A stretch of 36,904 bases of DNA from a virus (taxonomy: Duplodnaviria > Caudoviricetes), in IMG/VR virus record IMGVR_UViG_3300042347_000200, positions 1 through 36,904 of that record. The stretch is one strand, 5' to 3'. A program made the translations under genes and the position numbers. The notes below the pieces were generated by a model that saw nothing but the letters and a program-made list of their open reading frames with translations, was not told the DNA's origin and did not search any database. Positions 2,033 to 15,540 of the stretch are shown here, piece by piece. The first letter of the stretch is position 1; each line of letters opens with the position of its first letter.

Positions 2033-2209
2033 GTGGGCATTACAGGCGTTTTGCGCCTCTTGTGCCGTAGGGTATTGCCCGATGGTAGTCCGTGCCGTTT
2101 GCGGGCCGTGTAGGGCCGCGTAGTGGGTAGGATAGCGGATTATGAGATAGTCGTCGGCGCGCATTGTGATCTTTCCCGTTCGCGTCCAGGCTAATTTGTC
2201 AGAATTCAC
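2009..2209 (-). CDS. Hypothetical protein (66 aa)
   Basis: GTG start overlaps the primase 3' end; C-terminal YPTAQEAQNACNAH looks like small phage proteins. Confidence 0.55.
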   Translation of the reverse strand: MNSDKLAWTRTGKITMRADDYLIIRYPTHYAALHGPQTARTTIGQYPTAQEAQNACNAHKEKAPCE

Positions 2210-4742
2210 GTTCGGCCCATGCAGGCGCAGCAGCAGGCACTATATCAAGTCCGGTAATGTGCATAATACCTCCAGATTTGACACGCTCAAATCCTCGCTG
2301 TTCAAGCTCCTGCACAAATCCCTTCTGGGCTTGCACTCCCTCTCCGGCAGATTCAACGAATTTAGAGTAACTCGTATAGGCATCAATCGAACGGCACCGT
2401 TTGCCATGCGCCACCGTGCAGCATTCTTCTAGCCATGCGCCTAGCGTGTCCTCTGCATTCAAGTAATCAGCAATTGCAGCATCCACCGCAGCAGGCCGGG
2501 ACATACCTTTGCTGCGCCATGCTTCGCCACCACGGATTGCCCATGCAAGTATTCCAGGCATTTCAGCGTCAAGCAATTCGCGGATGTTCTCTATCTTCTC
2601 GCCATCCTTGAATGATGATGGGAAATTGACTAGATGGATACGTCGGCGCATTTCCTCACCTACCGAGCGCAGGCGGGGTTTGTGGTTGCCTGCAATCGCC
2701 AGCTTGAATTGAGGGTCGAACTGGAAATAATCGCATCGCATGAATCTGGCTGATATACGATCCCTGCCGGTAAGCGTCTTGATGCGGGATTCATTCCAGC
2801 GTGAATTTTTCTCAGTTTCGGTCGCCGTTACCAATCGCGCCCCGGCAAGGCCGGCAATCTCGGTTGAGTGTTCCGCGCCCTTTGATTCTGAGAATGTCTG
2901 CATAGCTGCGGCTACGGAATAATCGCCGGCAAGCTCGCGCAGGACGTGGATAAATGTACTCTTGCCACTACCGCCAGGGCCATAGACAAACAGGAAACAC
3001 TCGAAACGAGTATCCCCTGTCAAAACGTAATAGCACCATCGGCGCAGGTATTCCACCATCTCCGGGCCACCGTGGGCGCGTTCAAGGACGGACATAAACA
3101 TGGGGATGTCTTTTTCTTCGCACCTTGAAAAGTCTGGCGTGACTTTGGTGCTTTTGGTTATGTAGTGATCTGGACTTGAATCGGATAGCGTTGCAGTTTG
3201 AAGATCAACAACTCCGCCCGGAGTGCTTAACAGAAATATGTTCGAGTCGAATGTTTCGGGGACTGTGCATTTCAGGATTCTGGCAACCTTCTCCACCTTC
3301 TCGATTTTCGGCAGGTCGCACAATGCGCGCCGCGCTGTATCGGATAGTCGCAGGGACATATCCCACCCACTGACACTTACAAGGTGCCGAAGGATTACCT
3401 TACGCGCCGAGTTAGTCCTATCCTTTTCCCAAATGCTGCCGTTCCAGTGCATCCATTTATCCCATTCCGTAACGAACACCCAGTCCTTTCCTTGATTCTG
3501 TAACCAATATCCCGCCATCGCTGGATCGCTGAATTCCGGGCCATCGGGTTCCTCGTCGGCTTTGATAGCCGTATGCCTTGCAACCTTCGCCGGCTTTATC
3601 GCAGGCGCATCGGCTATCTCTGTCGGCTGCACATCAATGGTTAGAGGTATATGCTGCGGCTCTATATCGTCGTCTATGGGTGGCAGATCGTATTCAGACC
3701 AGTCCTCCATTGGGAGCGGATTCATCGGCTCAGGCTCGCCGGCTTGCGCGGATTGCATAGTTTTTTTTTCCTCCTCAAGCCTTTGCTTTTCGAGTTCTCT
3801 GCTGCCGAGTTTCGATACCCTCGGCGCGGCCCATGCCATCAATGCTTCTTTGCTCATCCCCTCCGATAAAGCATCGGCAACATCCCACTTGTTAGGCTTG
3901 TCGCTTGTATCGAGGATGCTAACTTTACACCCAAGGGGGAGCAGGTAGCTAGCCACCTTGAACATTGCTGCCTCACCGACTCCGGTAAGGTCGGCATCAG
4001 GTATCAACAATACATCACGCCCTGCCAGTGGCGTCCAATCGACTCCGGCTATGGCATTGGCACCACCAGGCCATGCTATGCCTATGCGCGAGGCCCAATA
4101 GTGCCGCGAGGCATCGGCGGCTTTCTCGCCTTCGCTGATGACTACCTTTGCTGATGGATTCGCGGTCAGCAGATCGAGGCCGTATATCGGTCGCCGTCCA
4201 TGCGTCCATGCCTTGCTCATCCACTTCGCGGATACGTTGGTGGAGTAGCTGCCATAACTCCACGGGCGATAGTCCTTGTCGCCACCGGGCTTGACGTAGC
4301 GCACCACGTAGCCGAGTAGTGCGCCATCAGCGTCCAGGTACGTCCAGTGCGCGACGTAGGTAAGGTTTTTTATGCTGAAGTCGGTCAACGGTTCCGGTGC
4401 CACCTGATGCTGCCACGTCGCGGCTTTGATTGGCGCTTCGGCTTTGATGCGGGTATCGTCGCGCTGGAATCCGTTGGCGCGCAAACGCTTGATCGCTTCG
4501 CCTTCGTCGCAACCGTCCATCTCCATGACAACATCAATGACGGTGCCGCCGCGCCCGCAACTCTTGCAATGACATTTTTGTACTCCGTCCTTTATATAGA
4601 CCTGCATACTCGGCTTCGATTCGTCGTGGAATATGCAAAGGCAGTCGTATTCGTTTCCGCGCTGCTTTAGTTCGACGCCGTAGCCGGTCAGCAATGTGAC
4701 CATGTCCACGGATCGCTTGAGGGCGTCAAGATCGTCGGTCAT
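2199..4742 (-). CDS. Primase-helicase: CHC2 Zn finger + TOPRIM + D5/P4-alpha-like SF3 helicase
   Basis: CIFHDE...CKSC zinc finger; EGEKAADA and DAD TOPRIM motifs; Walker A GPGGSGKST; IKTLTGRD..SARF; GNHKP; RRRIHL. Start set at ATG 4742 behind AAGGAG RBS. Confidence 0.92.
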   Translation of the reverse strand: MTDDLDALKRSVDMVTLLTGYGVELKQRGNEYDCLCIFHDESKPSMQVYIKDGVQKCHCKSCGRGGTVIDVVMEMDGCDEGEAIKRLRANGFQRDDTRIKAEAPIKAATWQHQVAPEPLTDFSIKNLTYVAHWTYLDADGALLGYVVRYVKPGGDKDYRPWSYGSYSTNVSAKWMSKAWTHGRRPIYGLDLLTANPSAKVVISEGEKAADASRHYWASRIGIAWPGGANAIAGVDWTPLAGRDVLLIPDADLTGVGEAAMFKVASYLLPLGCKVSILDTSDKPNKWDVADALSEGMSKEALMAWAAPRVSKLGSRELEKQRLEEEKKTMQSAQAGEPEPMNPLPMEDWSEYDLPPIDDDIEPQHIPLTIDVQPTEIADAPAIKPAKVARHTAIKADEEPDGPEFSDPAMAGYWLQNQGKDWVFVTEWDKWMHWNGSIWEKDRTNSARKVILRHLVSVSGWDMSLRLSDTARRALCDLPKIEKVEKVARILKCTVPETFDSNIFLLSTPGGVVDLQTATLSDSSPDHYITKSTKVTPDFSRCEEKDIPMFMSVLERAHGGPEMVEYLRRWCYYVLTGDTRFECFLFVYGPGGSGKSTFIHVLRELAGDYSVAAAMQTFSESKGAEHSTEIAGLAGARLVTATETEKNSRWNESRIKTLTGRDRISARFMRCDYFQFDPQFKLAIAGNHKPRLRSVGEEMRRRIHLVNFPSSFKDGEKIENIRELLDAEMPGILAWAIRGGEAWRSKGMSRPAAVDAAIADYLNAEDTLGAWLEECCTVAHGKRCRSIDAYTSYSKFVESAGEGVQAQKGFVQELEQRGFERVKSGGIMHITGLDIVPAAAPAWAEREF

Positions 4743-4897
4743 TTCTCCTTTCCTATCTGCTGTGCGCGCTGGCGAGTAACCCCAAGATGCACCCCGATGG
4801 CCGTCCATGTAAGCCCCTGCTTGCGTAGTTTGCGCGCCTCTTTCTTACGCGACTTGCTCGCATCCAGTAGTTGCCGATATATCTGTTTAGTTTTCAT
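4739..4897 (-). CDS. Small HTH DNA-binding protein (52 aa)
   Basis: GLTWTAIGVHLGVTRQRAQQI HTH pattern; stop overlaps the primase start. Confidence 0.75.
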   Translation of the reverse strand: MKTKQIYRQLLDASKSRKKEARKLRKQGLTWTAIGVHLGVTRQRAQQIGKEK

Positions 4898-4915
4898 TTG
4901 GTTTGCAATTAGGTG

Positions 4916-4943
4916 TTGACACGGCGAATGATATGGGTAGAAT
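4916..4943 (+). promoter_or_regulatory. Sigma70-type rightward promoter for the early operon and cassette array
   Basis: TTGACA (4916-4921), 16 bp, TAGAAT (4938-4943). Confidence 0.7.
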
Positions 4944-4956
4944 CCGTCACTGTCAA
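4928..4956 (-). promoter_or_regulatory. Sigma70-type leftward promoter for HTH/primase
   Basis: On - strand: TTGACA (4956-4951), 17 bp, TATCAT (4933-4928). Confidence 0.7.
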
Positions 4957-4983
4957 CTAACCAATCGAAAAAGGAACCGCACC

Positions 4984-5184
4984 ATGAAAGTCCGCCTGTA
5001 CCTCGTCGAAGAAATCGCCACCAAGAAAACTCGCCTGATCGAAGCCACCAATGCCGCAAGCGCAATGCGCCACGTTGCGGAGTCGCAGTTTAAGTGCGCC
5101 GTCGTTACTAGCACGTCCGAAGCTGCGCGGCTTGTGTCGGGCGGCATCAAGGTGGAGAGTGTGGGGAAGGGTGATGCGGTTTAA
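4984..5184 (+). CDS. Hypothetical phage protein (66 aa, MKVRLYLVEE...)
   Basis: AAGGA RBS; its TAA stop lies within the first attC-like core GTTTAAC. Confidence 0.75.
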   Translation: MKVRLYLVEEIATKKTRLIEATNAASAMRHVAESQFKCAVVTSTSEAARLVSGGIKVESVGKGDAV

Positions 5185-5245
5185 CGCAAAAGCTGTGGGG
5201 CTGGACGCCGCAGGCGGACAGTCCCACACGAGCGACGGGTTGTGC
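5179..5245 (-). repeat. attC-like site 1 (67 bp)
   Basis: GTTTAAC..GCT-GTG-GGG-CTG / CAG-T-CCC-A-CAC-G-AGC..GACGG-GTTGTGC; bulged T, A, G on the + strand 3' arm. Confidence 0.85.
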
Positions 5246-5269
5246 CCCGGCGATTGAACGGAGAACGAA

Positions 5270-5674
5270 ATGCAGCAACATGAACAACTGCGAAAGTACA
5301 ACCGGTGGCGGCGCGGCGACAAGCGCTTAAAGATGTCAGACCCAAAAGAACTCGGCGAACTAATAGACGGCGTGGCCGACCGGCTGGAAGTGCTGGAGCG
5401 CGAACACACGGAGTTCTTCGAGCGCTGGCACGGCGAGAGGCGGAGGCGGGAAAAGCTGGCGCATGACGTTGAGCGCTGCTACCGGATGCTGCTGTCTGAG
5501 CCAGACACGAAGGGCGCTCTATTCAAGGCCGAAAACATCCTGCGCGAGGCGCTGGGCGACCAGAAAGTCGGCTCTGGCGGCACGGCACCCGAGGGGCACA
5601 ACGACAGAGTGGAGGGGCGCGACGCAGCTTCATCGCGGCGCGTCCCTTCGCATGACGGGTTGGAGGGCAAATGA
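5270..5674 (+). CDS. Cassette 1 ORF, hypothetical (134 aa); C-terminus runs through site 2
   Basis: GGAG RBS; stop overlaps the next start (ATGA). Confidence 0.75.
   Translation: MQQHEQLRKYNRWRRGDKRLKMSDPKELGELIDGVADRLEVLEREHTEFFERWHGERRRREKLAHDVERCYRMLLSEPDTKGALFKAENILREALGDQKVGSGGTAPEGHNDRVEGRDAASSRRVPSHDGLEGK
5596..5665 (-). repeat. attC-like site 2 (70 bp)
   Basis: GCACAAC..GTGGAGGGGCGC / GCG-T-CCCTTC-G-CAT-GACGG-GTTGGAG. Confidence 0.85.
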
Positions 5675-6234
5675 CCCAGCGGCAACAAGCGCGGTTTGAA
5701 GGTTTTTCGGTGACGCACTCGAACCCGGCTGACATCGTGATGACAGACAGAGTGGTGGCGCGGAAGATTGTCGAGCACTTCCGTCCGCGCGGTACCGTGC
5801 TTGATCCGTGCCGGGGCGACGGCGCGTTCTTCGACGAAATGCCCGGCGCTGACTGGTGCGAAGTGAGGGAAGGCCGAGACTTTTTTGAGTGGAACACCCA
5901 CGTGGACTGGATTGTGAGCAACCCACCGTTCAGCATTTTTTTCGAGTGGCTGCGGCACAGCATGAGCTTGGCGGATGACATCGTGTATTTGATTCCGCTC
6001 GGGAAGGTTTGGCAGTCAAACAGGGTGCTGCGCATGGTTCATGAGTGGGGCGGGATACGGGAGATTCTGATTGTCGGCAACGGCAGGAAAGAACTCGGGT
6101 TCCCGGTCGGCTTTGCGGTAGGCGCGGTGCATTTTCAGAGGGGGTACCGGGGCGACATGCGCAACGGGTTCTTGCCCTCCAACGCCCAAGTAACCGGCGC
6201 TTCGCCGGCCCTTATGGCGAAGCGTCCGCGTTGA
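5671..6234 (+). CDS. Cassette 2 ORF, small N6-adenine DNA methyltransferase-like protein
   Basis: VLDPCRGDGAF (motif I), DFF and WIVSNPPF (motif IV). Confidence 0.8.
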   Translation: MTQRQQARFEGFSVTHSNPADIVMTDRVVARKIVEHFRPRGTVLDPCRGDGAFFDEMPGADWCEVREGRDFFEWNTHVDWIVSNPPFSIFFEWLRHSMSLADDIVYLIPLGKVWQSNRVLRMVHEWGGIREILIVGNGRKELGFPVGFAVGAVHFQRGYRGDMRNGFLPSNAQVTGASPALMAKRPR

Positions 6235-6248
6235 CTGAAATGTTGGGC
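6177..6248 (-). repeat. attC-like site 3 (72 bp)
   Basis: CTCCAAC..AGT-AAC-CGG-CGCTTCGCC / GGCGAAGCG-T-CCG-C-GTT-G-ACT..GTTGGGC. Confidence 0.9.
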
Positions 6249-6270
6249 GGAATTTTTACGGAGAAATGAC

Positions 6271-6669
6271 ATGAACGGACGAATACTCACCTGCGTTTAT
6301 TGCGGGCACGAATACCCACAGGACACGCCGGCAGCAGGAAGCCAGGTGCTGACGGAGCACATCAAGGTTTGCGAGCGGCACCCGATGCGGAAGGCCGAAG
6401 GCGACATTGCCCTGCTGCGCGGCGCGCTCGTTGGCCTGATCGGCACAGACGGCGAGGATGATCTGCGGCAGATGGAAGCGACGATGCGACTGTTGCCGGC
6501 ACCGGACGCCGACAAGGCGGTTTCGATCAACGCGATTCATGCGCTGCTGGCGACCATGCCGCCCAACGCACGAGGTCAGGCGACTGACGCGGCCTTATCG
6601 CGGCAGGTCGCCTGCACTGACGGGTTGTGCGGCAACGGTAACTACGGAGAGCAAAAAGATGGACGGTGA
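6271..6669 (+). CDS. Cassette 3 ORF, putative Zn-binding protein (CxxC...HxxxC); reads through site 4
   Basis: CVYCG and HIKVCERHP; GGAG RBS. Confidence 0.75.
   Translation: MNGRILTCVYCGHEYPQDTPAAGSQVLTEHIKVCERHPMRKAEGDIALLRGALVGLIGTDGEDDLRQMEATMRLLPAPDADKAVSINAIHALLATMPPNARGQATDAALSRQVACTDGLCGNGNYGEQKDGR
6561..6630 (-). repeat. attC-like site 4 (70 bp)
   Basis: GCCCAAC..GGT-CAGGCGAC-TG / CA-G-GTCGCCTG-C-ACT-GACGG-GTTGTGC; bulge identities differ from the other sites. Confidence 0.8.
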
Positions 6670-6901
6670 TGATATCAAGTGGGACAACAGGAGCATGCCT
6701 CATTACCCGAAGGGCATGCCACTTTGGCAGCGCATGATGTGTCTGCTTGGCTACCACAAAGCCGAGACGCGGCAGACCGCCAAGGGGCACTGCTACGGGT
6801 TCGAGACTGAGGAAGGCAAGCGGAAAGGCGTCTTTGGGCTGCACGACGAGACGCCGATGAAGCTGCGCGACCAGTGCGGCAGATGCGGGACGCTGCTTTG
6901 A
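6659..6901 (+). CDS. Cassette 4 ORF, small Cys/His phage-type protein (80 aa)
   Basis: GGAG RBS; MCLLGYH...CGRCG pattern seen in small prophage proteins. Confidence 0.65.
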   Translation: MDGDDIKWDNRSMPHYPKGMPLWQRMMCLLGYHKAETRQTAKGHCYGFETEEGKRKGVFGLHDETPMKLRDQCGRCGTLL

Positions 6902-6902
6902 C

Positions 6903-6973
6903 GTACAACGCCGACCATGAGGGGCGACAAAAAGCGTAGCTTTTTGGCGTCCCTCTCGATGAACTAGTTGGGC
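6903..6973 (-). repeat. attC-like site 5 (71 bp)
   Basis: GTACAAC..CAT-GAGGGG-CG..CAAAAAGC-GTA-GCTTTTTG..CG-T-CCCTCTC-G-ATG..GTTGGGC. Confidence 0.85.
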
Positions 6974-6998
6974 GGCTGCGCCCGGAGAGGCAACAACG

Positions 6999-7256
6999 AT
7001 GGCAACGATAGCCGAAAAGAACTTTGAGAAAGCCCTGCTTGATCTGGCGGGCGAGGATGTTTCAACCGCCCTGTCTGTGCTGACCGGGTGCTTTGTCAGC
7101 CTGACCCTTGAGGTGCTGCGCCGAAAAGGCCACGTTCCTGACGGCGACATCAAGATCGACGGCGGCGACCAGCGGGACATCACGATTCATCCGCCAAAGA
7201 CGCCCAACGCAAAAGTCAGCGGTGCCGGAACGGCGTCCGCTGGACTGCCGGGTTAG
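6999..7256 (+). CDS. Cassette 5 ORF, hypothetical (85 aa); tail encoded by site 6
   Basis: GAGG RBS; ends PNAKVSGAGTASAGLPG, the translation of the hairpin. Confidence 0.75.
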   Translation: MATIAEKNFEKALLDLAGEDVSTALSVLTGCFVSLTLEVLRRKGHVPDGDIKIDGGDQRDITIHPPKTPNAKVSGAGTASAGLPG

Positions 7257-7258
7257 CC
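7202..7258 (-). repeat. attC-like site 6 (57 bp)
   Basis: GCCCAAC..AGT-CAGCGG-TGCCG-GAA-CGGCG-T-CCGCTG-G-ACT..GTTAGCC. Confidence 0.9.
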
Positions 7259-7271
7259 AACAGGAGGAAAC

Positions 7272-7547
7272 ATGAAACAAGAGATTGCGGAACTGGAACA
7301 AATGCAAAAGCGCCTAGCCGAGATAAAGGCGCTGGCCGAAAAGAATGCAGCGGAACGCGAAGCGGGCGGATGCTACGACGACGAATTGCTGGCCGAGTGC
7401 ATGAGCGTGCTTGAGTATGCGACGTACCATGACGGGCGCTATGGGCAAGACCAAAACTGGGAGAACTTCCAGAGTCCAGCGCAGAAGCTGGTGTTGCGAC
7501 TGGCGAAGCGGCTCGGGCGGAAAGCATACGATGGCTTTGGTGGCTAA
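7272..7547 (+). CDS. Cassette 6 ORF, hypothetical (91 aa)
   Basis: AGGAGG RBS; TAA stop inside core GGCTAAC. Confidence 0.75.
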   Translation: MKQEIAELEQMQKRLAEIKALAEKNAAEREAGGCYDDELLAECMSVLEYATYHDGRYGQDQNWENFQSPAQKLVLRLAKRLGRKAYDGFGG

Positions 7548-7614
7548 CGATCTAGGTAACCGGCGCGACGCCGGCCCTATCGGTGGCGCGTCCGTGTTGA
7601 CCGACGAGTTAGCA
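7542..7614 (-). repeat. attC-like site 7 (73 bp)
   Basis: GGCTAAC..GGT-AAC-CGG-CGCG..CGCG-T-CCG-T-GTT-G-ACC..GTTAGCA. Confidence 0.88.
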
Positions 7615-7631
7615 GGCAAACGGGAAGGGTG

Positions 7632-8336
7632 ATGATGGCTGAGAAAGTGACAATCGGGAATTGCGAACTGTGGCACGGTGACTGCCGCGAAGTGCTGCCG
7701 CTGCTGCCTGATTTTGACTTGCTATTGACAGACCCGCCATATGAGATCGGAACCGCATGGCACGGCGATTTTGCCGGGAAGAACGGGAAGGCCGCAATGT
7801 GGGGAACTGCCCCTGAGTGGGACAAACTTTGCGACGACGGCGTTTCTCTTGGGGTTCAGAAGGCGCAGGAGGCGGTTGTTTGGGGTGGGCATTTGTACGC
7901 ACTTCCTCAACGCTCGCGCTGGCTTTCTTGGGACAAGTGCCAGACTTTCAGCAGCGGCGACTTTGAACTCGCATGGACGAACGGAAGCGGGGCAACGCGG
8001 GTTTTTCGGATGTCTCGGATTGACGCATACCAAAACAGCGGCGAAGGGAAAGAACACCCGACGCAGAAGCCCACGGCCTTGATGGAATGGTGCCTGAGCT
8101 TGCACCCAAAGGCTCGGACGGTTTGTGACCCATTCATGGGCAGCGGAACAACTGGCGTTGCCTGCGCCCGGATGGGGTTGCAGTTCGTCGGCATAGAGCG
8201 TGAGCGCAAATACTTCGAGATTGCCTGCCGCCGAATAGAGCAAGCCTACGCACAGCCTCGGCTGTTCGAGGATACGAAAGTCGGCGCTGGCGAGACGGCG
8301 GTGCAGGGCGACATGCTTTTGCCTGCCAACGTCTGA
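7632..8336 (+). CDS. Cassette 7 ORF, N4-C/N6-A DNA methyltransferase (beta-class motif order)
   Basis: LWHGDC, LTDPPY, HPTQKP, DPFMGSGTTG and FVGIE; start may be 7629, 7632 or 7635. Confidence 0.92.
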   Translation: MMAEKVTIGNCELWHGDCREVLPLLPDFDLLLTDPPYEIGTAWHGDFAGKNGKAAMWGTAPEWDKLCDDGVSLGVQKAQEAVVWGGHLYALPQRSRWLSWDKCQTFSSGDFELAWTNGSGATRVFRMSRIDAYQNSGEGKEHPTQKPTALMEWCLSLHPKARTVCDPFMGSGTTGVACARMGLQFVGIERERKYFEIACRRIEQAYAQPRLFEDTKVGAGETAVQGDMLLPANV

Positions 8337-8391
8337 AATAACCGGGACACGCGGCATCATCGCGTGGCTCCGGTTGATTGACGGGTTAGCC
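8324..8391 (-). repeat. attC-like site 8 (68 bp)
   Basis: TGCCAAC..AAT-AACCGG..CACGCG/CGCGTG..T-CCGGTT-G-ATT-GACGG-GTTAGCC. Confidence 0.88.
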
Positions 8392-8432
8392 GGCTCCCGT
8401 TAAAGGCCGGCACAAGTTGGAGATAAAACCCA

Positions 8433-8594
8433 ATGAAAGCCACAATCGAAGCCGCAATAAAGAACCTGACCGAAAAGGCCCAAGCCGCAAAGCCTGACGA
8501 CGTGCTGAAGTACTCGCAGGCCGCGCTGAACTTGGCGCACACCGAAGCCACGCTGGAAGCAACGCGGCGTGAGAACGAGAAACAGAAGACGTAA
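8433..8594 (+). CDS. Cassette 8 ORF, 53-aa helical protein (MKATIEAAIKNLTEKA...), not in the supplied ORF track
   Basis: GGAG RBS; fills most of the cassette. Confidence 0.7.
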   Translation: MKATIEAAIKNLTEKAQAAKPDDVLKYSQAALNLAHTEATLEATRRENEKQKT

Positions 8595-8625
8595 TGAGCG
8601 GCCGTCACTGGTCAAGGCTGGTGAC

Positions 8626-8688
8626 GGCTAACGCTGGCGTAACCGGCGCTGAGCTTGCGAAGCGTCCGCGTTGACGCAAATGTTAGGC
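8626..8688 (-). repeat. attC-like site 9 (63 bp)
   Basis: GGCTAAC..GCGT-AAC-CGG-CGCT..AGCG-T-CCG-C-GTT-G-ACGC..GTTAGGC. Confidence 0.88.
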
Positions 8689-8706
8689 AACGATTTCGGA
8701 GGAAAC

Positions 8707-8886
8707 ATGGACAACTTTAACGACCTTTACCCGAAACAACGAACTGGTAAAGAGTGCAAGAAAACGGATTGCGACAGGCATAAGAATTATGTTGCATGGC
8801 AGTGCGGCACTTCAAGCCTTAGCTTCTGCATTGAGTGCAAACATGCTCACGTTTCGCAGTACAAGCGCAAGGTGTCTAACGGCTGA
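8707..8886 (+). CDS. Cassette 9 ORF, 59-aa Cys-rich protein
   Basis: GGAGG RBS; five Cys including CIEC. Confidence 0.7.
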   Translation: MDNFNDLYPKQRTGKECKKTDCDRHKNYVAWQCGTSSLSFCIECKHAHVSQYKRKVSNG

Positions 8887-8941
8887 AATAACCGGCGTGC
8901 CGCGCTTTTGCGGCACGTCCGGGTTGATTGATTAGTTCGGC
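8874..8941 (-). repeat. attC-like site 10 (68 bp)
   Basis: GTCTAAC..AAT-AAC-CGG-CGTGCCGC/GCGGCACG-T-CCG-G-GTT-G-ATT..GTTCGGC. Confidence 0.9.
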
Positions 8942-8976
8942 GTCTTGCCGGAGCCGACTTTTGAAAAGGATAAGCG

Positions 8977-9225
8977 ATGGACATTGAACAAGCGTGCCGT
9001 GCGTCTCGGCGCAACAGGGCCAAGGTGCAGGCAGCGAAGGAATGCGGCTGCTATTTCTGTCTCCGATCGTTCCCGTCAACGGATGTTGTTGATTGGGCCG
9101 ACCTGGACGAAATGACGGCGCTTTGCCCGCACTGTGGGATTGACTCGGTGTTGCCATCTGTGACGGACAAGGAAGCACTGATAGCAGCAAACGAACGGTG
9201 GTTCTGTGAGACGCCGAACGTCTGA
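8977..9225 (+). CDS. Cassette 10 ORF, small Zn-ribbon protein (82 aa)
   Basis: CGCYFCL...ALCPHCGIDSV; AAGGA RBS. Confidence 0.8.
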   Translation: MDIEQACRASRRNRAKVQAAKECGCYFCLRSFPSTDVVDWADLDEMTALCPHCGIDSVLPSVTDKEALIAANERWFCETPNV

Positions 9226-9279
9226 ATTCACCGGCCTGCGCGGCTTTTCGCGCAGGTCCGGTGGAATGACGGGTTAGCC
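9213..9279 (-). repeat. attC-like site 11 (67 bp)
   Basis: - strand reads GGCTAAC-CCGTC-ATTCCACCGGACCTGCGCGAAAAGCCGCGCAGGCCGGTGAAT-TCAGAC-GTTCGGC, a canonical top-strand attC layout. Confidence 0.92.
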
Positions 9280-9322
9280 GTGCGCCCGATGAAGGCACGG
9301 CAACACAACAAAGGAAACGACC

Positions 9323-9547
9323 ATGAATGAAGGATACGCAATGGAAATGGCAGCGAAGCAAGCGGGCGTACTTGGTGGCTACGCGAAAGACCCGATGCAG
9401 CAGATGACGTGCGGCGAGAATTTGGAGCGCAAGATTGCCGAGCAGAAGGAGCGGCTGGCGATGTTGGAAAACGCGATGGAGGAAATGAAAGCCACCGGCC
9501 TTTACAACGTGAAGATTTCCACCCTGCGCGACACGATGTCATGGTGA
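9323..9547 (+). CDS. Cassette 11 ORF, hypothetical coiled-coil protein (74 aa)
   Basis: AAGGA RBS; stop 1 nt before the terminal core. Confidence 0.75.
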   Translation: MNEGYAMEMAAKQAGVLGGYAKDPMQQMTCGENLERKIAEQKERLAMLENAMEEMKATGLYNVKISTLRDTMSW

Positions 9548-9548
9548 C

Positions 9549-9567
9549 GGCTAACGTTAAGTAGCCC
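9549..9567 (-). other. Terminal half-site (attI-like simple site or truncated attC)
   Basis: GGCTAAC-GTTAA-GTAGCCC; the core matches the site 11 end (ACGGCTAAC/GTTAGCCGT) but no hairpin body follows. Confidence 0.65.
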
Positions 9568-9585
9568 TACCGTGCAAGGTACACT

Positions 9586-9891
9586 ATGACCTATCGACTG
9601 ACCAAAAAAGCCGCACAGACCCGCCTCGCAGCCATGCGACGAGGCCGGGAGCGTGTGCGCTTGGACGGACCGGCGCCGGAATATCCGCAACCGCTACCAG
9701 AACTTCGTCGGCAGATCATCATCCGTGATTTCGACTTCGGCGAGAAGATTCACACGCTCGACCTGTACCGGACTGATCGCGTCGACTGCTACCGCGTGGT
9801 CGCCGATGGCGTTGAATGGAAAGAGCGCATCGGATGGTCGAAGATTCTGGCGGGACTGCGGAAATCCATGCCGCGTGTCGGATCAATTTAA
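9586..9891 (+). CDS. Hypothetical protein (101 aa)
   Basis: AAGG RBS; co-directional with the operon. Confidence 0.7.
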   Translation: MTYRLTKKAAQTRLAAMRRGRERVRLDGPAPEYPQPLPELRRQIIIRDFDFGEKIHTLDLYRTDRVDCYRVVADGVEWKERIGWSKILAGLRKSMPRVGSI

Positions 9892-9952
9892 TTGCGCGTT
9901 GTAAGTTTCGTGTAAGTTTCAGCAGGAGAATTACACACAAGGAGGTAGCACA

Positions 9953-10138
9953 ATGAAACCTGTACCGCAGTACCAAGCAACAGTAGAGCAGCAGCATCCG
10001 GCGATGGATGGCGTAGCAAATCTTATCGTAGTAGGGCAGACGTTCGGCACCCATGACGAGTGCTGGAACGCTGCTAAAGCGATGACGAAGTTTCCTGTCA
10101 TCCAGTTCAAGGAAGTTCATCATGGGCAGAAGTGCTGA
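9953..10138 (+). CDS. Hypothetical protein (61 aa)
   Basis: AAGGAGG RBS. Confidence 0.65.
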   Translation: MKPVPQYQATVEQQHPAMDGVANLIVVGQTFGTHDECWNAAKAMTKFPVIQFKEVHHGQKC

Positions 10139-10421
10139 AATGTGGCAAGAGCAGCAGGACGAGGATAATCAGCAACCCGATACGCTGGCCGAGGAACAAT
10201 GGAGCATGAGCAACTACAGGCCAGACCCACACCGAATGGCGCAAATCATCGCCGCATCCAGTCTCAAGGATTGCCGCGCCGATCCTAACAACCAATTGGG
10301 CGACTGGCACGATGGTCGCACCACAGCTATCGCGCTGATGTACTACGAGCCGGAAATCCTCGCCGCTGCGAACGAAGTCCGTTTCCTCGTCGGGCAGTAT
10401 AAGTGGAGGCACTTCGCATGA
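10122..10421 (+). CDS. Hypothetical protein (99 aa)
   Basis: AAGGA RBS; stop overlaps the next start. Confidence 0.6.
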   Translation: MGRSAEMWQEQQDEDNQQPDTLAEEQWSMSNYRPDPHRMAQIIAASSLKDCRADPNNQLGDWHDGRTTAIALMYYEPEILAAANEVRFLVGQYKWRHFA

Positions 10422-11200
10422 AAACCATCCTCGACATGCCGGCCAGCGAGTATCACGCTCACGAAGCTGTCAGCAACTCGCTCATCAGCAAGATACTCAA
10501 GTCACCGGCACATGCTCGCGCCTACCTGGACGGTGCCACCGACGAGCAGACTCCAGCAATGGCATTCGGTACTGCCTTCCACATGGCGGTGCTGGAGCCG
10601 GTACGCTTCGCCGAGTCCTACAGCGTGTTCGACATGGACGGGCGCACCAAGGAAGGCAAGGCGGCAAAGCAGGCCATGCTGGACTCAGGGCAGACGATCA
10701 TCAGCGCGACGGATTGGGACACCATTCAAGGTATGTGCGTGTCTATCCTTCGGAACCCTACAGCATCGTCACTCCTGACGGATGGCGTATCCGAATCATC
10801 ATACTTCTGGACGGACAAGGATACCGGGCTTGAATGCAAGTGCCGCCCTGACTTCCAATCAAACGGAACGCCGTACATCGTTGATCTGAAATCCACCGAG
10901 GACGCATCACCGGCAGGATTCGCCCGTAGCATTGCTGCTTACGGCTATCATCGGCAGGCGGCGCACTACATGGCAGGCACCGGAGCGGAGAAGTTCTACT
11001 TCGTTGCCGTCGAGAAAAAGGCACCGTTCGCCGTTGCAGTGTATGAGTTGGACGCTCTGGCTCTGGATCAAGGATGGCGCGAGGTTCGCCGTGCGCTCGA
11101 CTACTGGAAGGACTGCACCACGGCGCAAATGTTCCCCGGCTACCAGGAAGAAATCGTTACGTTGGGCTTGCCAACGTGGGCTATGAAGGAGGATGTATGA
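10418..11200 (+). CDS. RecE/exonuclease VIII-like PD-(D/E)XK nuclease (DUF3799-like)
   Basis: YHAHEAVSNS, SPAH, FGTAFH, KCRPD, IVDLKST, YHRQAAHY and FVAVEK. Confidence 0.9.
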   Translation: MKTILDMPASEYHAHEAVSNSLISKILKSPAHARAYLDGATDEQTPAMAFGTAFHMAVLEPVRFAESYSVFDMDGRTKEGKAAKQAMLDSGQTIISATDWDTIQGMCVSILRNPTASSLLTDGVSESSYFWTDKDTGLECKCRPDFQSNGTPYIVDLKSTEDASPAGFARSIAAYGYHRQAAHYMAGTGAEKFYFVAVEKKAPFAVAVYELDALALDQGWREVRRALDYWKDCTTAQMFPGYQEEIVTLGLPTWAMKEDV

Positions 11201-12090
11201 ACACCGCACTCGTACCGTTCCAAGACATACAACAGATGGCAACCGCTGTCGCCAAGTCCGGCCTGTTCGGAATGAAAACACCGGAGCAGGCTATCGCCCT
11301 GATGCTCGTCGCGCAGTCAGAGGGCTTGCATCCTGCGCGGGCAGCAATGGAGTACCACGTCATACAAGGCCGCCCTGCACTCAAGGCTGATGCCATGCTT
11401 GCGCGGTTCCAGAACGCAGGCGGCAAGGTTAGCTGGAAGTCCTACACCGACGCCGACGTTACCGGCGTGTTCTCGCATCCGTCTGGCGGCGAGGTTTCGA
11501 TTCAATGGACGTTCGACATGGCGACCAAGGCGGGGCTTACCAAGAACCCGACATGGAAGCAGTATCCCCGCGCCATGCTCCGCGCACGGTGCATCAGCGA
11601 GGGCATCCGCACCGTGTATCCAGGCGTATCTGTCGGAATCTATACGCCGGAAGAAGTGCAGGATTTCACACCAGCACCGGAGAAGGACGTTACTCCGCAA
11701 CCAGCACCGACGCCCATGCCTGAGAAGGTGAAGCAAGCCGCAGCCAAGGCTCAAGGCAAGACACACAAGCCTGACCTGAATGTGATTGAAGGCGAGGCTA
11801 CCCATGTGCGCGGCACCATCAGCGGAAATCCGCTTGAAGGCGACCTTACCGGAATCGGCCCCGACCGTCCCGTCGACGACGTGACCAAGGGCAAGGTGTT
11901 GCACGCCTTCGCAAGCGTAGGCTACACGCTCCCGGCGCTGGAAGCAGAGTACGGCAAGCCTCTGTCCGAGTGGATGGAGTCGGATGTTGTCGAGGCGCGG
12001 GAGTTGCTGAAGTCCCTCAAGATTTCCGCTGCACAAGCCAAGGCTCAGGCTGCGGAGATGGCGGCGAATCCTGATGGTGGGGAGATTTGA
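11197..12090 (+). CDS. RecT-like single-strand annealing protein
   Basis: Directly after the exonuclease; YHVIQGRP, WKQYPRAMLRAR and GIYTPEE. Confidence 0.75.
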   Translation: MNTALVPFQDIQQMATAVAKSGLFGMKTPEQAIALMLVAQSEGLHPARAAMEYHVIQGRPALKADAMLARFQNAGGKVSWKSYTDADVTGVFSHPSGGEVSIQWTFDMATKAGLTKNPTWKQYPRAMLRARCISEGIRTVYPGVSVGIYTPEEVQDFTPAPEKDVTPQPAPTPMPEKVKQAAAKAQGKTHKPDLNVIEGEATHVRGTISGNPLEGDLTGIGPDRPVDDVTKGKVLHAFASVGYTLPALEAEYGKPLSEWMESDVVEARELLKSLKISAAQAKAQAAEMAANPDGGEI

Positions 12091-12092
12091 GC

Positions 12093-12314
12093 ATGATTTC
12101 CGACGATGGAACAGACGCCGAATGCGGCGACGAGACTGACGACAACGAACCCGGCTACTGCCCACAGTGCAGCGGTAGCGGCGAGGGCATGTACGATGGA
12201 ACGCGGTGCGGCAGTTGCGGTGGCTCAGGAGTCGAGCGCAACGACGATGGACGCGAGGATTGGGAGGCCGACCGTGCCGACGAGCGCAACGATGCGGCCA
12301 AGTTCGATGACTAA
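12093..12314 (+). CDS. Small acidic protein with DnaJ-type CxxCxGxG zinc repeats
   Basis: CPQCSGSG and CGSCGGSG. Confidence 0.65.
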   Translation: MISDDGTDAECGDETDDNEPGYCPQCSGSGEGMYDGTRCGSCGGSGVERNDDGREDWEADRADERNDAAKFDD

Positions 12315-12543
12315 CGCAATCAGCAGACAAGCCGCGCAAACGCTTGAGCGCAAACTGATGTCCTCGCCAGTGCCATTGGCAGTGTTCGTGACGTATGGCG
12401 GCAGTTGGGTGGCGACTAAAGTGACAACGGCGCTATTCAGGACGCAACTCGAAAAGACGCCGAACTCGTTGATGGGCGTATACACAATTGATGCAAACAT
12501 GGTCGACTTGGCCGATGACTTTTTTAACAGTGGGGTGCGTTAA
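12307..12543 (+). CDS. Hypothetical protein (78 aa, MTNAISRQ...)
   Basis: Overlaps both neighbours; TAATG coupling to ssb. Confidence 0.6.
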   Translation: MTNAISRQAAQTLERKLMSSPVPLAVFVTYGGSWVATKVTTALFRTQLEKTPNSLMGVYTIDANMVDLADDFFNSGVR

Positions 12544-12935
12544 TGAATAACTGGAATTTCACCGGCAATCTCGGACGGTCAGCAGAGCAAAAGTTTGTTG
12601 GCGACAATAGCCTCGTATCGTTCTCCGTAGCCGTTAAGTCGGGCTTTGGCGACAAGGCTGTGACAACCTGGGCGAACTGTCAGATGTGGGGCAAGCGCGG
12701 CGAGTCCGTGTTGCCGTATCTCAACAAGGGGCAGTTGGTCGGCATCAGCGGGGAGGCTACCCTGCGCATGTACGAGAAGAAGGATGGCGGCCAGGGTGCA
12801 TCGCTTGATGTGCGCGTGAATGACCTGACGCTGCTTGGCAAGTCGGAGGCATCGCAGCAGGAAGCATCCCCCGTTACAGAGCATTCAGCGGCGAAGGCGA
12901 ATGCTTACGTTGTTGATGATGACGAAGCGTTCTGA
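12543..12935 (+). CDS. ssb: Single-stranded DNA-binding protein
   Basis: GNLGR, FSVAV, TTW.NC.MWGK, YLNKGQLV and acidic tail DDDEAF. Confidence 0.93.
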   Translation: MNNWNFTGNLGRSAEQKFVGDNSLVSFSVAVKSGFGDKAVTTWANCQMWGKRGESVLPYLNKGQLVGISGEATLRMYEKKDGGQGASLDVRVNDLTLLGKSEASQQEASPVTEHSAAKANAYVVDDDEAF

Positions 12936-13123
12936 TGAACCGAAAAGAGCAACTAGCCTTCACCCGCCTTGAGATCGAGAACGCGGAACTTCGCGCCTCG
13001 AACTCTCGGCACATCGAGGTGTATCGGGATCAGTCGATCGAACTGATCGACTTGCGAACGAATCTGGCAATGGTTCGGCGGTTTGCTGAAGAACTTTACG
13101 CGGAGACTAATTTACATGGCTGA
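12935..13123 (+). CDS. Hypothetical protein (62 aa)
   Basis: TGATG coupling to ssb. Confidence 0.6.
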   Translation: MNRKEQLAFTRLEIENAELRASNSRHIEVYRDQSIELIDLRTNLAMVRRFAEELYAETNLHG

Positions 13124-13325
13124 CTTCGCCACATGGGCGCAACCGACCCTAGCCAAACTCGCCGCCGACCAGCAAGCCGAGATAGTGCGGCTCAACAATG
13201 CTCAATGCGACACGCTACGGGTACTCGTAGAGTTGGCTGCGGAATATGCGCGAGTGTGCGATATGTTTTGTAAGGTTCCTGTCAAGAATCCGGCTTATCG
13301 TGCGGCTATGGACGCAATCAAATGA
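13116..13325 (+). CDS. Hypothetical protein (MADFATWAQPTL...)
   Basis: GGAG RBS; ATGA overlap with the next gene. Confidence 0.6.
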   Translation: MADFATWAQPTLAKLAADQQAEIVRLNNAQCDTLRVLVELAAEYARVCDMFCKVPVKNPAYRAAMDAIK

Positions 13326-13660
13326 CTCCTACCTTCCGCAAGTGGCACGACGCCGACGACGCCGGTACTCCGCTGCTCATTACGAAGCAACTGGAAGATT
13401 TGACCGGCAGCAAGGAATACTCTGTCGACGTCCGAGGGCCGAAGCAGCACCACACGCGGTTTGTGTGCGAAGTGCTGCTGTACCGCGACGAGGGGCATAT
13501 CGACGCATGGGCAGACACGACAACCGGAAGCCTATACGTCGATGGGCGGTGCTTGTCGGGGCCGCTGGAGTTTGTTGGCAAGCCGAAGCCTACGGGTCGC
13601 ACTGTGCCGAATTGGAGAAAGCGGCAGCAGGAAGGGGATTTGAGGACGAGGATATGGTGA
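13322..13660 (+). CDS. Hypothetical protein (112 aa)
   Basis: Translationally coupled on both sides. Confidence 0.6.
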   Translation: MTPTFRKWHDADDAGTPLLITKQLEDLTGSKEYSVDVRGPKQHHTRFVCEVLLYRDEGHIDAWADTTTGSLYVDGRCLSGPLEFVGKPKPTGRTVPNWRKRQQEGDLRTRIW

Positions 13661-14130
13661 TGAAAAAGAAGCTCACCTTAAACGAAACCATACGCCTTAA
13701 CGAGAAGGCTCTGCGCGGCCTTTGCTTCGCGGCAGGTAAGCCAATGCCAGAAGGCTTCGATACGCCCGCCAAAGAGGTTAAAACACGCGCTCCGAGCAAG
13801 CCACCGGAGTACCCACTGGAACACGAAGAACAAAAGAACTTCGTCAAGTGGTTCAGGATGCAATATCCGAAGGTTCGCATCTTCGCCGTACCGAATGCCG
13901 CCATGCGGGATTACAAACTCGCAGCGTATTTAGTTGCGGAAGGACTCACGGCAGGAGTACCGGATTTGCTAGTGCTTGACTGGAAACTAGGCATCGAAAT
14001 GAAGCGCGTCAAAGGTTCAACAATCAGCGACGATCAACGCGAATGGGAAATCTACCTTCGCAACATCGGATGGCATCACATCTATGCCTACGGGTGCAAG
14101 GACGCCATTGAAAAGGTGCAGCAACTATGA
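13660..14130 (+). CDS. VRR-NUC family endonuclease
   Basis: EHEEQ, FAVPN, EGLTAGVPDL, IEMKR and S.DQ.EW. Confidence 0.85.
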   Translation: MKKKLTLNETIRLNEKALRGLCFAAGKPMPEGFDTPAKEVKTRAPSKPPEYPLEHEEQKNFVKWFRMQYPKVRIFAVPNAAMRDYKLAAYLVAEGLTAGVPDLLVLDWKLGIEMKRVKGSTISDDQREWEIYLRNIGWHHIYAYGCKDAIEKVQQL

Positions 14131-14309
14131 ACCGCAGCTACGAGGAGGATAAAACACAATGTACCGCAATCGGACAGAACAAGAAACGATGCGCCAGGAT
14201 AGCAACGCATTCCTGCGGCGGCAATGCGTACTGCGAGAGGCACAACCAGATGGCTATCCGCGACAGGGCGAACTCTGTTCCGCTGAAAGCATCGAAGCCA
14301 TCATCCTAG
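14127..14309 (+). CDS. Small Cys/His protein (60 aa)
   Basis: ATGA overlap; QCTA...RC...YCERH. Confidence 0.6.
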   Translation: MNRSYEEDKTQCTAIGQNKKRCARIATHSCGGNAYCERHNQMAIRDRANSVPLKASKPSS

Positions 14310-14363
14310 ACTCAGTGGCGCAGAGGGATCGTGAATACATCGTGCGACAAATCGGGAGGATCA

Positions 14364-14606
14364 ATGAAGCCAACGAAAAAGCCGTTTCACGCCGATCTGA
14401 TAGTGTTCTTTGCCTGCTGGTCGGTTGCCTGTTTCGTGGCGGGACTGTGGATGGGTGAGGAACGAGCGACCCAAGCCCCCAAGGTCTGTGCCAAGGTATT
14501 AGGGATGCAGCCAGTGAGTAGCACGGCAGATACATGCACCTACATCATGGGTACACAGGGTCGTGCGTACTGGAAATATCTGGCGGTGAAGGAGGAAAAG
14601 AAATGA
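14364..14606 (+). CDS. Small membrane protein
   Basis: GGAGG RBS; hydrophobic LIVFFACWSVACFVAGLW. Confidence 0.6.
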   Translation: MKPTKKPFHADLIVFFACWSVACFVAGLWMGEERATQAPKVCAKVLGMQPVSSTADTCTYIMGTQGRAYWKYLAVKEEKK

Positions 14607-14755
14607 ACACCTTCCTGCTCAACCTGCGATACGGATTCGAGATGACCCTCGCGTACCTCGCCGGCAACATGGGCGACGAGGCTTCGATGGACAACCATGT
14701 ACGCGAGGCCGACAAGGTCTGGATGGAGCTTTGGAAGATAGGAGCGGTGAGATGA
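14603..14755 (+). CDS. Hypothetical protein (50 aa)
   Basis: AAGGAGG RBS; ATGA overlaps on both sides. Confidence 0.6.
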   Translation: MNTFLLNLRYGFEMTLAYLAGNMGDEASMDNHVREADKVWMELWKIGAVR

Positions 14756-15147
14756 ACAAAGATGACGTACGGCTGATAGCGGATCAGTGTTTTGTAGATC
14801 GCAGAAATAATGTGCTACCTACTAAGACATTCATGGGCAACGATGACGAACTACAAAACTTCGCCGCTCGACTTGAAGCGGAGTGGATGAAGGATGCGGA
14901 GCCGGTGTTTGAGGTTGGCTTCGGTTGGCTGAAAACAAAGCGCGGGAACATGGCGCCTTGACCGAACGGAACTCTGCTTTACCTCCACCCCGCATCCATC
15001 CCGGAAGGCATGGTGCTGGTGCCGAAGGAACCGACTGAGGAGATGATTAGGCACGGGAACATATCAATGAGTTCTGCTAACCCGAAAGATCACACAGTTA
15101 GAGGGTGCTACATGAACATGATCGCCGCCGCGCAAGGAGAGAAGTGA
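14752..15147 (+). pseudogene. Phage hypothetical gene interrupted by one in-frame TGA (14959-14961)
   Basis: Same frame continues after the stop: ...GNMAP*PNGTLLYLHPASIPEGMVLVPKEPTEEM...MIAAAQGEK, then TGATG coupling to the next ORF. Confidence 0.7.
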
Positions 15148-15254
15148 TGAACTACATGACACCTAGCGATTTTCAATTCGCAGTAAACTGGCGCATCGCT
15201 GAACTGGAAGCTGAGAACGCCGAGTTGCGGAAGGATGCTGCGCGTGGAAGCTGA
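15147..15254 (+). CDS. Short ORF (35 aa, ...LEAENAELRKDAAR), possibly the N-terminal part of a frameshifted gene
   Basis: AAGGAG RBS; overlaps 15235-15540 in another frame. Confidence 0.45.
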   Translation: MNYMTPSDFQFAVNWRIAELEAENAELRKDAARGS

Positions 15255-15540
15255 ATTACGGGAGCAACTCGCCGCCATGACGAAGGAACGGGATGAGGCA
15301 CTAAGCTACATCAATGAGATTCCAGCAAGGCAAAGCGACCTCATCAAATCCAAAGCCAGAGAAGCAAAGCTGCGGGAGGCGTTGGCTGCAATACGCGAAT
15401 GCGCGGATGCTTCATTCGCCCTCCCCATCGACTCAACCGCGCTTGATGAACGACTCAAGCAGGAGAGGGAGCGGTGTGCGAAGGTCTGTGTAAAACAAAA
15501 TCTTGAGGGTTGCGCTGAGGCAATACGGAGCCTTACTTAA
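15235..15540 (+). CDS. Hypothetical coiled-coil phage protein
   Basis: ERERCAKVC...CAEAIRS pattern; last + strand early gene, convergent with the lysis block. Confidence 0.6.
   Translation: MLRVEAELREQLAAMTKERDEALSYINEIPARQSDLIKSKAREAKLREALAAIRECADASFALPIDSTALDERLKQERERCAKVCVKQNLEGCAEAIRSLT

Follow-up and report, generated by a model that had tools for sequence, protein, structure and literature searches.

Integrons have been treated as bacterial devices, and attC clusters in phages as rare captured fragments. The closest described phage systems are the clusters of attC sites lacking integron integrases (CALINs), defined as two or more attC sites no more than 3 kb apart in the absence of an integron integrase (PMC9892861). 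The available part of that report (Qi et al., 2023) gives 17 CALINs in 10,705 phage genomes, records recombination of 5/6 tested phage attC sites with the integrase IntI1, and describes the phages TJE1 and PH101 as typical in direction (PMC9892861); two TJE1 sites checked here had canonical polarity.

Here we describe an attC array in a tailed phage (Duplodnaviria; Caudoviricetes), IMG/VR record IMGVR_UViG_3300042347_000200. The record, classed as linear and 100% complete by CheckV, was analyzed over its whole length of 36,904 bases, which we call the window. An earlier note on this DNA had reported an integron-type array and regarded such arrays as unrecognized in phages, a view that the results of Qi et al. 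(PMC9892861) do not support. The unusual parts of the array, which that note missed, are its polarity, reversed in every cassette, and the attI-like site at its end. We conclude, with a probability of roughly 78%, that the window carries a mirror-image integron array in a tailed-phage early operon: eleven attC-bounded antisense cassettes with a host-like attI at one end, exchanged at AA^C between sister genomes by IntI acting in trans, most likely from a betaproteobacterial host chromosome.

Eleven attC sites bound single-gene units

The eleven sites placed here by the earlier note, 57-73 bp long with nnnnAAC...GTTnnnn ends, were all recovered at the same starts, with one open reading frame (ORF) per unit and units of 248-782 bp. 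Its statement that no integrase is present also held: no match to the phage-integrase family PF00589 was found anywhere in the record, and no tyrosine recombinase was detected among 44 ORFs scanned against PHROGs. The sites and cassettes are as follows.

attC site 1: 5179-5245, minus strand (canonical top strand is the minus strand)
Cassette 1: 5185..5601, plus strand, 417 bp; hairpin, then ORF 5270-5674, 134 aa, no assigned function; runs through site 2
attC site 2: 5596-5665, minus strand
Cassette 2: 5602..6182, plus strand, 581 bp; ORF 5671-6234, DNA methyltransferase (phrog_799, E 1e-27)
attC site 3: 6177-6248, minus strand
Cassette 3: 6183..6566, plus strand, 384 bp; ORF 6271-6669, 132 aa, no assigned function; runs through site 4
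attC site 4: 6561-6630, minus strand; the sole site with G instead of C at the L'' bulge position
Cassette 4: 6567..6908, plus strand, 342 bp; ORF 6659-6901, 80 aa, no assigned function
attC site 5: 6903-6973, minus strand
Cassette 5: 6909..7207, plus strand, 299 bp; ORF 6999-7256, 85 aa, phrog_18086 (no assigned function)
attC site 6: 7202-7258, minus strand
Cassette 6: 7208..7547, plus strand, 340 bp; ORF 7272-7547, 91 aa, no assigned function; stop codon inside the next core
attC site 7: 7542-7614, minus strand
Cassette 7: 7548..8329, plus strand, 782 bp; ORF 7635-8336, N6/N4 DNA methyltransferase (PF01555, E 1e-20)
attC site 8: 8324-8391, minus strand
Cassette 8: 8330..8631, plus strand, 302 bp; ORF 8433-8594, 53 aa, no assigned function
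attC site 9: 8626-8688, minus strand
Cassette 9: 8632..8879, plus strand, 248 bp; ORF 8707-8886, 59 aa, cysteine-rich, no assigned function
attC site 10: 8874-8941, minus strand
Cassette 10: 8880..9218, plus strand, 339 bp; ORF 8977-9225, 82 aa, CxxC motifs, phrog_30788
attC site 11: 9213-9279, minus strand
Cassette 11: 9219..9554, plus strand, 336 bp; ORF 9323-9547, 74 aa, no assigned function; adjoins the attI-like site

Site lengths fall within the range of 57-141 bp given for attC in the accessible text of PMC5371416, and with 11 sites, gaps below 800 bp and no intI the array fits the CALIN definition. The sites are about 63% alike. When they were aligned with five sites of a sister phage contig (L002; comparison loci carry L numbers and lake runs X numbers), AAC and GTT were invariant across all 16. 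On the minus strand every window site has the layout R''(7)-5-L''(8)...L'-R', with an extra C at L'' position 4 in 10/11 sites and L-box pairing at 6/6 positions in nine.

The strongest sign that the sites bound true cassettes came from the cores: the right core of a site pairs with the left core of the site that follows, and not with its own left core. Complementarity to the next left core was found at 41/44 variable positions (perfect in 8/11 cases), a level reached in none of 200,000 permutations, and to the own left core at just 23/44. The stems were likewise conserved as pairs: changes on both sides were seen in 13/14 stem pairs over the 16 sites, the stem structure for this count having been derived from the same 16 sequences, and 96.6% of cells were paired compared with 75.0% in shuffles (0/500 reached the observed value) and 31-47% in slid controls. 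Folding z-scores against shuffles ranged from -1.3 to -4.8 across sites. A profile of 33 bacterial attC sites located beside intI, from which sites that had matched our search pattern were removed beforehand, matched all window sites, ten of them at E<=0.002 and one at E=0.4, in every case on the minus strand.

Searching the window with a covariance model derived from the sites, which match it by construction, gave no additional site, and an Rfam scan of the window returned a single chance match (E 0.85) and nothing on the sites. Sites were called by profile search combined with a geometry allowing a 5- or 6-nt spacer, which gave no matches on reversed sequences. A strict geometry scanner with both spacers fixed at 5 nt recovered 3/11 sites plus a spurious one at 19359 and was dropped. 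A tally of C at the bulge position across all loci was skewed by the scoring and was set aside.

Every cassette gene is antisense to its attC site

Because the attC top strand is the minus strand and all of the genes lie on the plus strand, the genes are antisense relative to canonical cassettes. This was the case for 11/11 window genes by ORF position and for 10/10 internal units by a second classifier based on ribosome sites; the typical sense layout, with attC behind the gene, was not encountered. Each unit is ordered hairpin, ribosome site, gene, with the gene starting 6-44 nt past the site. Eight of the 11 window genes, and the genes of 67/90 reversed units in other phages, terminate within or past the next site, and a neighbor can therefore alter the C-terminus of the protein encoded ahead of it; the cassette 10 product, for example, is 82 aa long in the window and 108 aa in the related array L329.

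Canonical (plus-strand) polarity was rejected on three observations. The bulged bases sit on the downstream arm of the plus strand. As expected for reversed polarity, the last unit ends in a twelfth left core (GGCTAAC, 9549-9555), behind which the attI-like site takes the place of a hairpin. Finally, as a polarity control, 16/16 fetched loci with an intI match have their sites upstream of intI and on the opposite strand.

An attI-like site forms the right border of the array

The right-hand end of the array consists of three features.

9549..9568, minus strand: attI-like docking site; core GGCTAAC, crossover 9554/9555, then GTTAAGTAGCCCT on the plus strand
9569..9580, strand not assigned: near-palindrome ACCGTGCAAGGT, 13-14 nt past the crossover and just ahead of the next start codon
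9586..9891, plus strand: 101-aa gene, conserved, without known family; constant position past the attI-like site

Both its sequence and its position identify 9549-9568 as attI-like: it closes the last unit, and in L002 and L329 it again serves as the constant right edge. The border sequence, AAC and then GTTAAGTAGCC, was also seen where other phage arrays end. The comparison with chromosomal attI sites covered 30 intI loci belonging to the family of one Rhodocyclaceae genome, 25 of which had enough sequence. The window site agrees with chromosomal attI at 10/11 nt in two of them (L308 and L317), and matches of at least 8/11 nt occurred in 8/25 host loci versus 1/25 for a reverse-complement control; the best match to AAC and the following 11 nt mostly lay 130-165 nt upstream of the host intI. 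A pattern search for the attI motif over 201 genomes of the order gave control matches about as frequently as motif matches, and its count carries no weight. Two to three attI-like motif copies with similar following sequence were observed on different contigs in the betaproteobacteria G115, G164, G251 and G207. In addition, a GTAG[A/C]C-like box past the crossover is repeated about 18 nt on within 9556-9585 (GTACAC in the window; GTAGAC in L254, L258 and L262), an arrangement reminiscent of the attI1 direct repeats.

No promoter match pointing into the array was found at the attI-like site, the sole 11/12 matches being at 4916-4956, at the far end. From the attI side the cassette genes would not be readable. 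Two elements of a complete integron, intI in cis and an attI-side cassette promoter, are absent.

The near-palindrome is a possible accessory binding site. Together with the attI-like site and the 101-aa gene it forms a module, at 13-14 nt spacing, in 25/28 viral loci of the 101-aa family, some of which are near-duplicates. Twenty module loci have a site no more than 1.5 kb away, and complementarity of the core to that site is full in 14 of them and extends to 3/4 positions in six. The protein has 301 homologues, and the gene follows a minority of arrays in the pattern-derived set described below (three viral loci and one locus in a metagenome-assembled genome). No Pfam, PHROGs or NCBIfam family was assigned to it, and its best Atlas score was 0.79. 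Compared with solved chains, its structural model (predicted local distance difference test score 76.6, predicted template modeling score 0.46) reached a best Z of 3.8; viral structures gave no match with E below 0.001, and the candidate assignment as an arm-type DNA-binding fold received no support in these fold searches. Family members of greater length have unrelated additional segments (UbiA, HNH, an integrase fragment) and are probably chimeric gene calls. A short direct repeat, TGTAAGTTTC twice, lies directly past the gene at 9895-9925.

In three phage loci (L035, L072 and L281) intI occupies the place of the 101-aa gene, which is what would be expected if the window array were a relic whose ancestor had intI at that position, its variants being old alleles that were reassorted or eroded by deletion. 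The retention of the module in 25/28 family loci speaks against a relic, as does the finding that IntI exceeded the cut-off in 0/25 searched records of the 101-aa family (including L248 and L249).

Whole cassettes are exchanged at AA^C

Change of gene content precisely at AA^C in relatives, a check proposed in the earlier note, was seen in L002, L329 and lake contigs. L002 is 99.2% identical to the window over 2113-5186 and 98.6% over 9550-15979; homology ends at 5186 and resumes at 9550, with five different cassettes in between. L329 has, in this order, cassettes 7-10 (99.7%), the first cassette of L002, a variant of cassette 11, a new methyltransferase cassette and the same right flank. Between near-identical alleles, identity stops within -5 to +4 nt of AA^C. 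In the underlying exact-match extension, 7/15 anchored tests halted at internal substitutions and two had no anchor; these were excluded from the junction evidence. One cassette of the L002 array (7554-8195) codes for an RNA ligase family protein (PF09414, E 1e-18).

Fourteen lake-water DNA runs, four of them possibly the source of the record, contain 91-100% of sampled words from 4000-11000. Contigs of lake runs join 9216 to 9553, lacking exactly the 336 bp of cassette 11 (three runs, X5, X7 and X9; short sides of 30-43 nt), and 6564 to 7546, lacking the 981 bp of cassettes 4, 5 and 6 together (X10, X13, X15 and X16; short sides of 26 nt in X10 and X13, and of 78 and 112 nt in X15 and X16). 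A weak third joint, from 8324 to 9550, lacks the 1225 bp of cassettes 8-11 (X10). Joint overlaps are 2-5 nt around AAC. Loose contig ends at 5187, 5603, 8331, 9220 and 9556 continue as attC-like sequence of another kind. Before 6181 and 9553, too, there are loose ends, which lead to different sequence. A hint, from depth and a single shared substitution, is that one contig of X5 behaves like the L002 allele alongside a window-type allele. X15 and X16 are RNA runs that contain the array region as contigs, which carry no strand or level information. Runs X17-X23, with small shares, were left out of the contig comparison.

Single cassettes with edges at the cores are also shared with other phages. 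Cassette 1 is present in L281 (97% over the BLAST match) and L056 (88%) with different neighbors; cassette 3 in L105 (100% over 364 bp) with a different neighbor ahead; cassette 9 as an 86% identical unit in L031; cassette 10 in L281 (100%), where it adjoins attI and intI, and in L282; and cassette 11 as an 82% identical unit in L070. Cassette 7 belongs to a widespread phage cassette family with 31 tblastn matches in the fetched loci. For the cassette 2 protein, no relatives were found in viral contigs. Four distant relatives of the cassette 10 protein (41-44%) had no site detected nearby by a profile that may miss some. Taken together, the units behave as cassettes, moving as blocks between G^TT crossovers with complementary end cores.

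Homologous recombination between repeated hairpins could in principle shuffle such units, since an exonuclease VIII/RecT-like pair is encoded at 10418-12090, shortly 3' of the array, and the sites resemble each other at about 63%; alternatively, the hairpins might be regulatory stem-loops, for which the early-promoter stem-loop cassettes of T4-type phages are a model. We regard both versions as very unlikely. Whole units move at AA^C, with joints that share only 2-5 nt even at the attI end, where no repeat exists, and between near-identical alleles identity ends at -5 to +4 nt; both findings speak against homologous recombination driven by genes of the phage. The arms are complementary within a site though they differ between sites, the geometry of bulges and spacers is that of attC, and profiles of bacterial attC match the sites. 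Moreover, the recombination genes also occur in L003, which lacks an array.

The turnover data also bear on the relic described above. Differences between contigs carry no direction or time, and to that extent would suit reassortment or erosion of old alleles. Cassettes that are 97-100% identical between unrelated arrays, and at least four array forms between 99% identical flanks, point the other way, and we consider a relic highly unlikely. The series formed by arrays without cassette 11, with it, and with it and another behind fits growth at the attI end as the presumed direction.

Phage and bacterial arrays lean in opposite directions

The generality of the reversed layout was assessed in loci gathered with one pattern made from window sites 3 and 9, and thus in a pattern-limited sample. 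The pattern matched 111 viral and at least 121 GTDB loci, of which 80 in each set had flanks; 636 sites were called over these loci and none on reversed sequence. By a first rule, distinct viral units were antisense in 118 cases, sense in 11 and ambiguous in 44, and those of GTDB, among the matches listed, were antisense in 18, sense in 99 and ambiguous in 13. By a second rule, which uses ribosome sites, the viral units divided into 113 antisense, 2 sense and 58 unclear, and the GTDB units, again among the matches listed, into 12, 31 and 87. Bacterial loci therefore lean to the sense orientation, opposite to phage arrays. Of the 11 viral units first called sense, a convincing sense gene was present in L064 only, and the others look like errors of the ORF rule. 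Some of the antisense GTDB loci are probably phage contigs in bins, one of which (L181) even has the 101-aa gene.

In three host arrays, L155 and L130 (both beside intI) and L133 (18 sites), one or two of the cassettes are reversed and phage-like, the others being sense. These lie at 3912-4491 and 5997-6409 in L155, 5705-6375 in L133 and 5220-5648 in L130. In L155 a reversed cassette is first at attI, and its protein shares 58% identity with one encoded by a cassette of phage L029. The converse was observed in phage array L064, where a canonical host-type cassette at 985-1845 codes for a 227-aa protein antisense to its reversed neighbors; by its motifs this protein looks like a trypsin-like protease. 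L076 is one phage contig with several short arrays, in which two sites lie on the opposite strand with genes still antisense to them; the gene behind its array and the 101-aa protein have no BLASTP similarity. No site was detected around the methylase of MW202573.

Position of the array in the early operon

The minus strand of the window codes for terminase, portal, capsid and tail proteins. A primase-helicase is located at 2199-4808, and a rightward early operon includes exonuclease VIII, the RecT-like protein and the single-stranded DNA-binding protein SSB. Two features precede the array.

4916..4943, plus strand: promoter, sigma-70-type, TTGACA-16-TAGAAT, 11/12 consensus (consensus match only)
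4984..5184, plus strand: first early gene, 66 aa, no family; non-cassette, its stop TAA inside the left core of site 1

The border between the 66-aa gene and site 1 is the fixed left edge of the array, and the same gene and border are present in L002. From its consensus match, the promoter likely drives the early operon through the entire array. A leftward promoter-like site (4956-4928) lies back to back with it, and each matches 11/12 consensus positions. Behind these sites, a 52-aa ORF at 4739-4897 on the minus strand precedes the primase, and its product resembles a helix-turn-helix regulator. No LexA-type box was found above chance. The segment 3-1893 differs between the window and L002; in it are a gene resembling the DNA polymerase beta clamp (TIGR00663 E 6e-13, under the cut-off) and a methyltransferase. 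Short tandem CTCCC-containing units followed by GGGAG-containing units lie near the record end (36690-36850). There are no close cultured relatives; matches to the major capsid protein are just 23-30% identical.

Source of the integrase and a model for the array

The proposal of the earlier note that the phage uses host IntI in trans fared differently in its parts: gain and loss at AA^C were found, IntI in trans is the best reading of the data, and its host origin is suggested by the likeness of the attI sites. A host enzyme is most likely because the attI is host-like and IntI was found in just 3/77 viral records; IntI is present in 69/121 genomes of the candidate host family, that of the Rhodocyclaceae genome.

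Several points weigh against this reading. The three viral records that code for their own IntI include one that shares cassettes with the window phage, and a helper phage could be the enzyme source; the host assignment extends to a candidate family only. The three phage IntIs cluster with a local support of 0.993 in an unrooted tree of 10 sequences. The comparison set is pattern-limited, and gene orientation in it was assigned by simple ORF rules. When the AAC/GTT pairs were imposed in folding, the two strands did not separate. All read evidence consists of assembled contigs. The 1225-bp joint has just 28 nt on its short side, and three joints (3364, 332 and 4026/3903 bp) fit no cassette sum; these three have additional sequence between their sides, and we read them as replacements.

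The phage IntIs raise the alternative of a phage-only integron network, with the same array and chemistry and with integrase supplied mainly by co-infecting or resident phages. In L035 (1906-2940), L072 (6243-7229) and L281 (2326 onward), intI lies directly behind a reversed array and in the same direction as the cassette genes, and their products group together as noted above. L281, whose IntI match is at E 4e-147, carries cassettes 1 (97%) and 10 (100%) side by side ahead of its attI and intI. A second tyrosine recombinase adjoins IntI in L035 and L281. Such a network is nevertheless unlikely: IntI is rare among the viral records and frequent in the candidate host family, and the attI sites of IntI phages (TTAAATTCTCC and TTAAATTCAAC) agree by eye with the 11 nt of the window at 5-6 positions, compared with up to 10 for host sites. 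Non-cognate attI/IntI pairs recombine poorly, according to the accessible text of a review (PMC8946536).

In the model that we favor, with IntI supplied by the host, the enzyme would fold and cut the plus strand of the window, which corresponds to the attC bottom strand; the natural junctions at AA^C agree with recombination of this kind. New cassettes would enter mainly at the right-hand attI and exit by attC x attC excision. All cassette genes would be read from the promoter at 4916-4943; as this lies at the end far from attI, the newest cassette would be transcribed last, the reverse of a bacterial integron. Each gene would have its own hairpin ahead of it, and its stop codon or C-terminus would often be supplied by the hairpin of the neighbor. 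Host-type cassettes inserted by IntI would be antisense to the phage promoter. The phage would probably benefit by trying out accessory genes quickly, anti-restriction DNA methyltransferases among them.

Two ideas may account for the polarity. First, should replication and early transcription proceed in one direction, the strand that recombines would be on the lagging-strand template, a location that favors attC folding and excision in the available part of PMC5371416. Second, cassettes of either pool would be antisense, and hence likely silent, in the array of the other pool. We tentatively extend this to a joint proposal, which as a whole we consider doubtful: phages might run their own mirror-image integron on the host enzyme, with a copied host attI that faces backwards in the early operon, reversed cassettes kept as a pool of their own, a one-way filter and the 101-aa gene as helper. 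As one side of the filter, phage genes would perhaps be expressed in phages only and be silent in host integrons (compare L130, L133 and L155); as the other, host cassettes, many of them for anti-phage defense, might lie antisense in phages, as seen once, in L064. The conjectured helper role would consist of the 101-aa protein binding the adjacent palindrome or stimulating host IntI.

Comparison with known integron systems

The window represents an integrase-less phage with a working-looking platform, whose content differs between co-occurring sisters at single-base precision. Such a platform gives phage mosaicism a site-specific mechanism and ties phage accessory genes to the host cassette pool, which contains anti-phage defense genes according to the part available of bioRxiv 10.1101/2024.07.02.601719. 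The polarity of attC is held, in the accessible text of PMC8946536, to exist to place genes under the integron promoter. The reversed layout breaks this rule, and it predicts strand choice, insertion end and expression. How cassettes originate is an open question, on which a second, independently oriented cassette pool offers a handle.

Like the window, the phage CALINs in the available part of Qi et al. (PMC9892861) are attC clusters without intI that often carry DNA methyltransferase cassettes. They are small, with three attC sites in TJE1 and 2-4 in Table S1, compared with 11 cassettes here, and for those of virulent phages no attI, reversed polarity or sister-genome turnover is reported in the same part, all of which the window has. 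The minus-strand layout and the C at L'' position 4 are those of the attC-aadA7 control in Table S3 of that report (PMC9892861). No published account of reversed phage cassette arrays or phage attI mimics was found in a literature search that left subscription journals mostly outside.

The complete phage integrons L035, L072 and L281 share with the window reversed cassettes, an array in an operon and individual cassettes (1, the 7-family and 10), but code for IntI behind differing attI sites where the window has the 101-aa gene. Class 1 mobile integrons (IntI1, attI1, attC-aadA7) have the same attC anatomy and G^TT crossover, and their cassette order likewise changes by excision and insertion. 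Their attI1 (in L144, L159 and L192) is unlike the window site, their promoter Pc beside attI drives the newest cassette, and their cargo differs.

The sedentary chromosomal integrons of Betaproteobacteria (Rhodocyclaceae and relatives; L133, L148, L155, L308 and L317) have attC sites of the same family as the window, a near-identical attI core, the same core complementarity and the same arrangement of attC strand and attI. They differ in having intI beside attI and genes that are mostly sense (99/117 called units among the GTDB matches listed), whereas the window lacks intI, its genes are antisense and its promoter is at the far end from attI. The window array is therefore a CALIN by definition and not a complete integron, and its cassettes invert the usual layout; judged by its sequence, it appears to work like an integron array.

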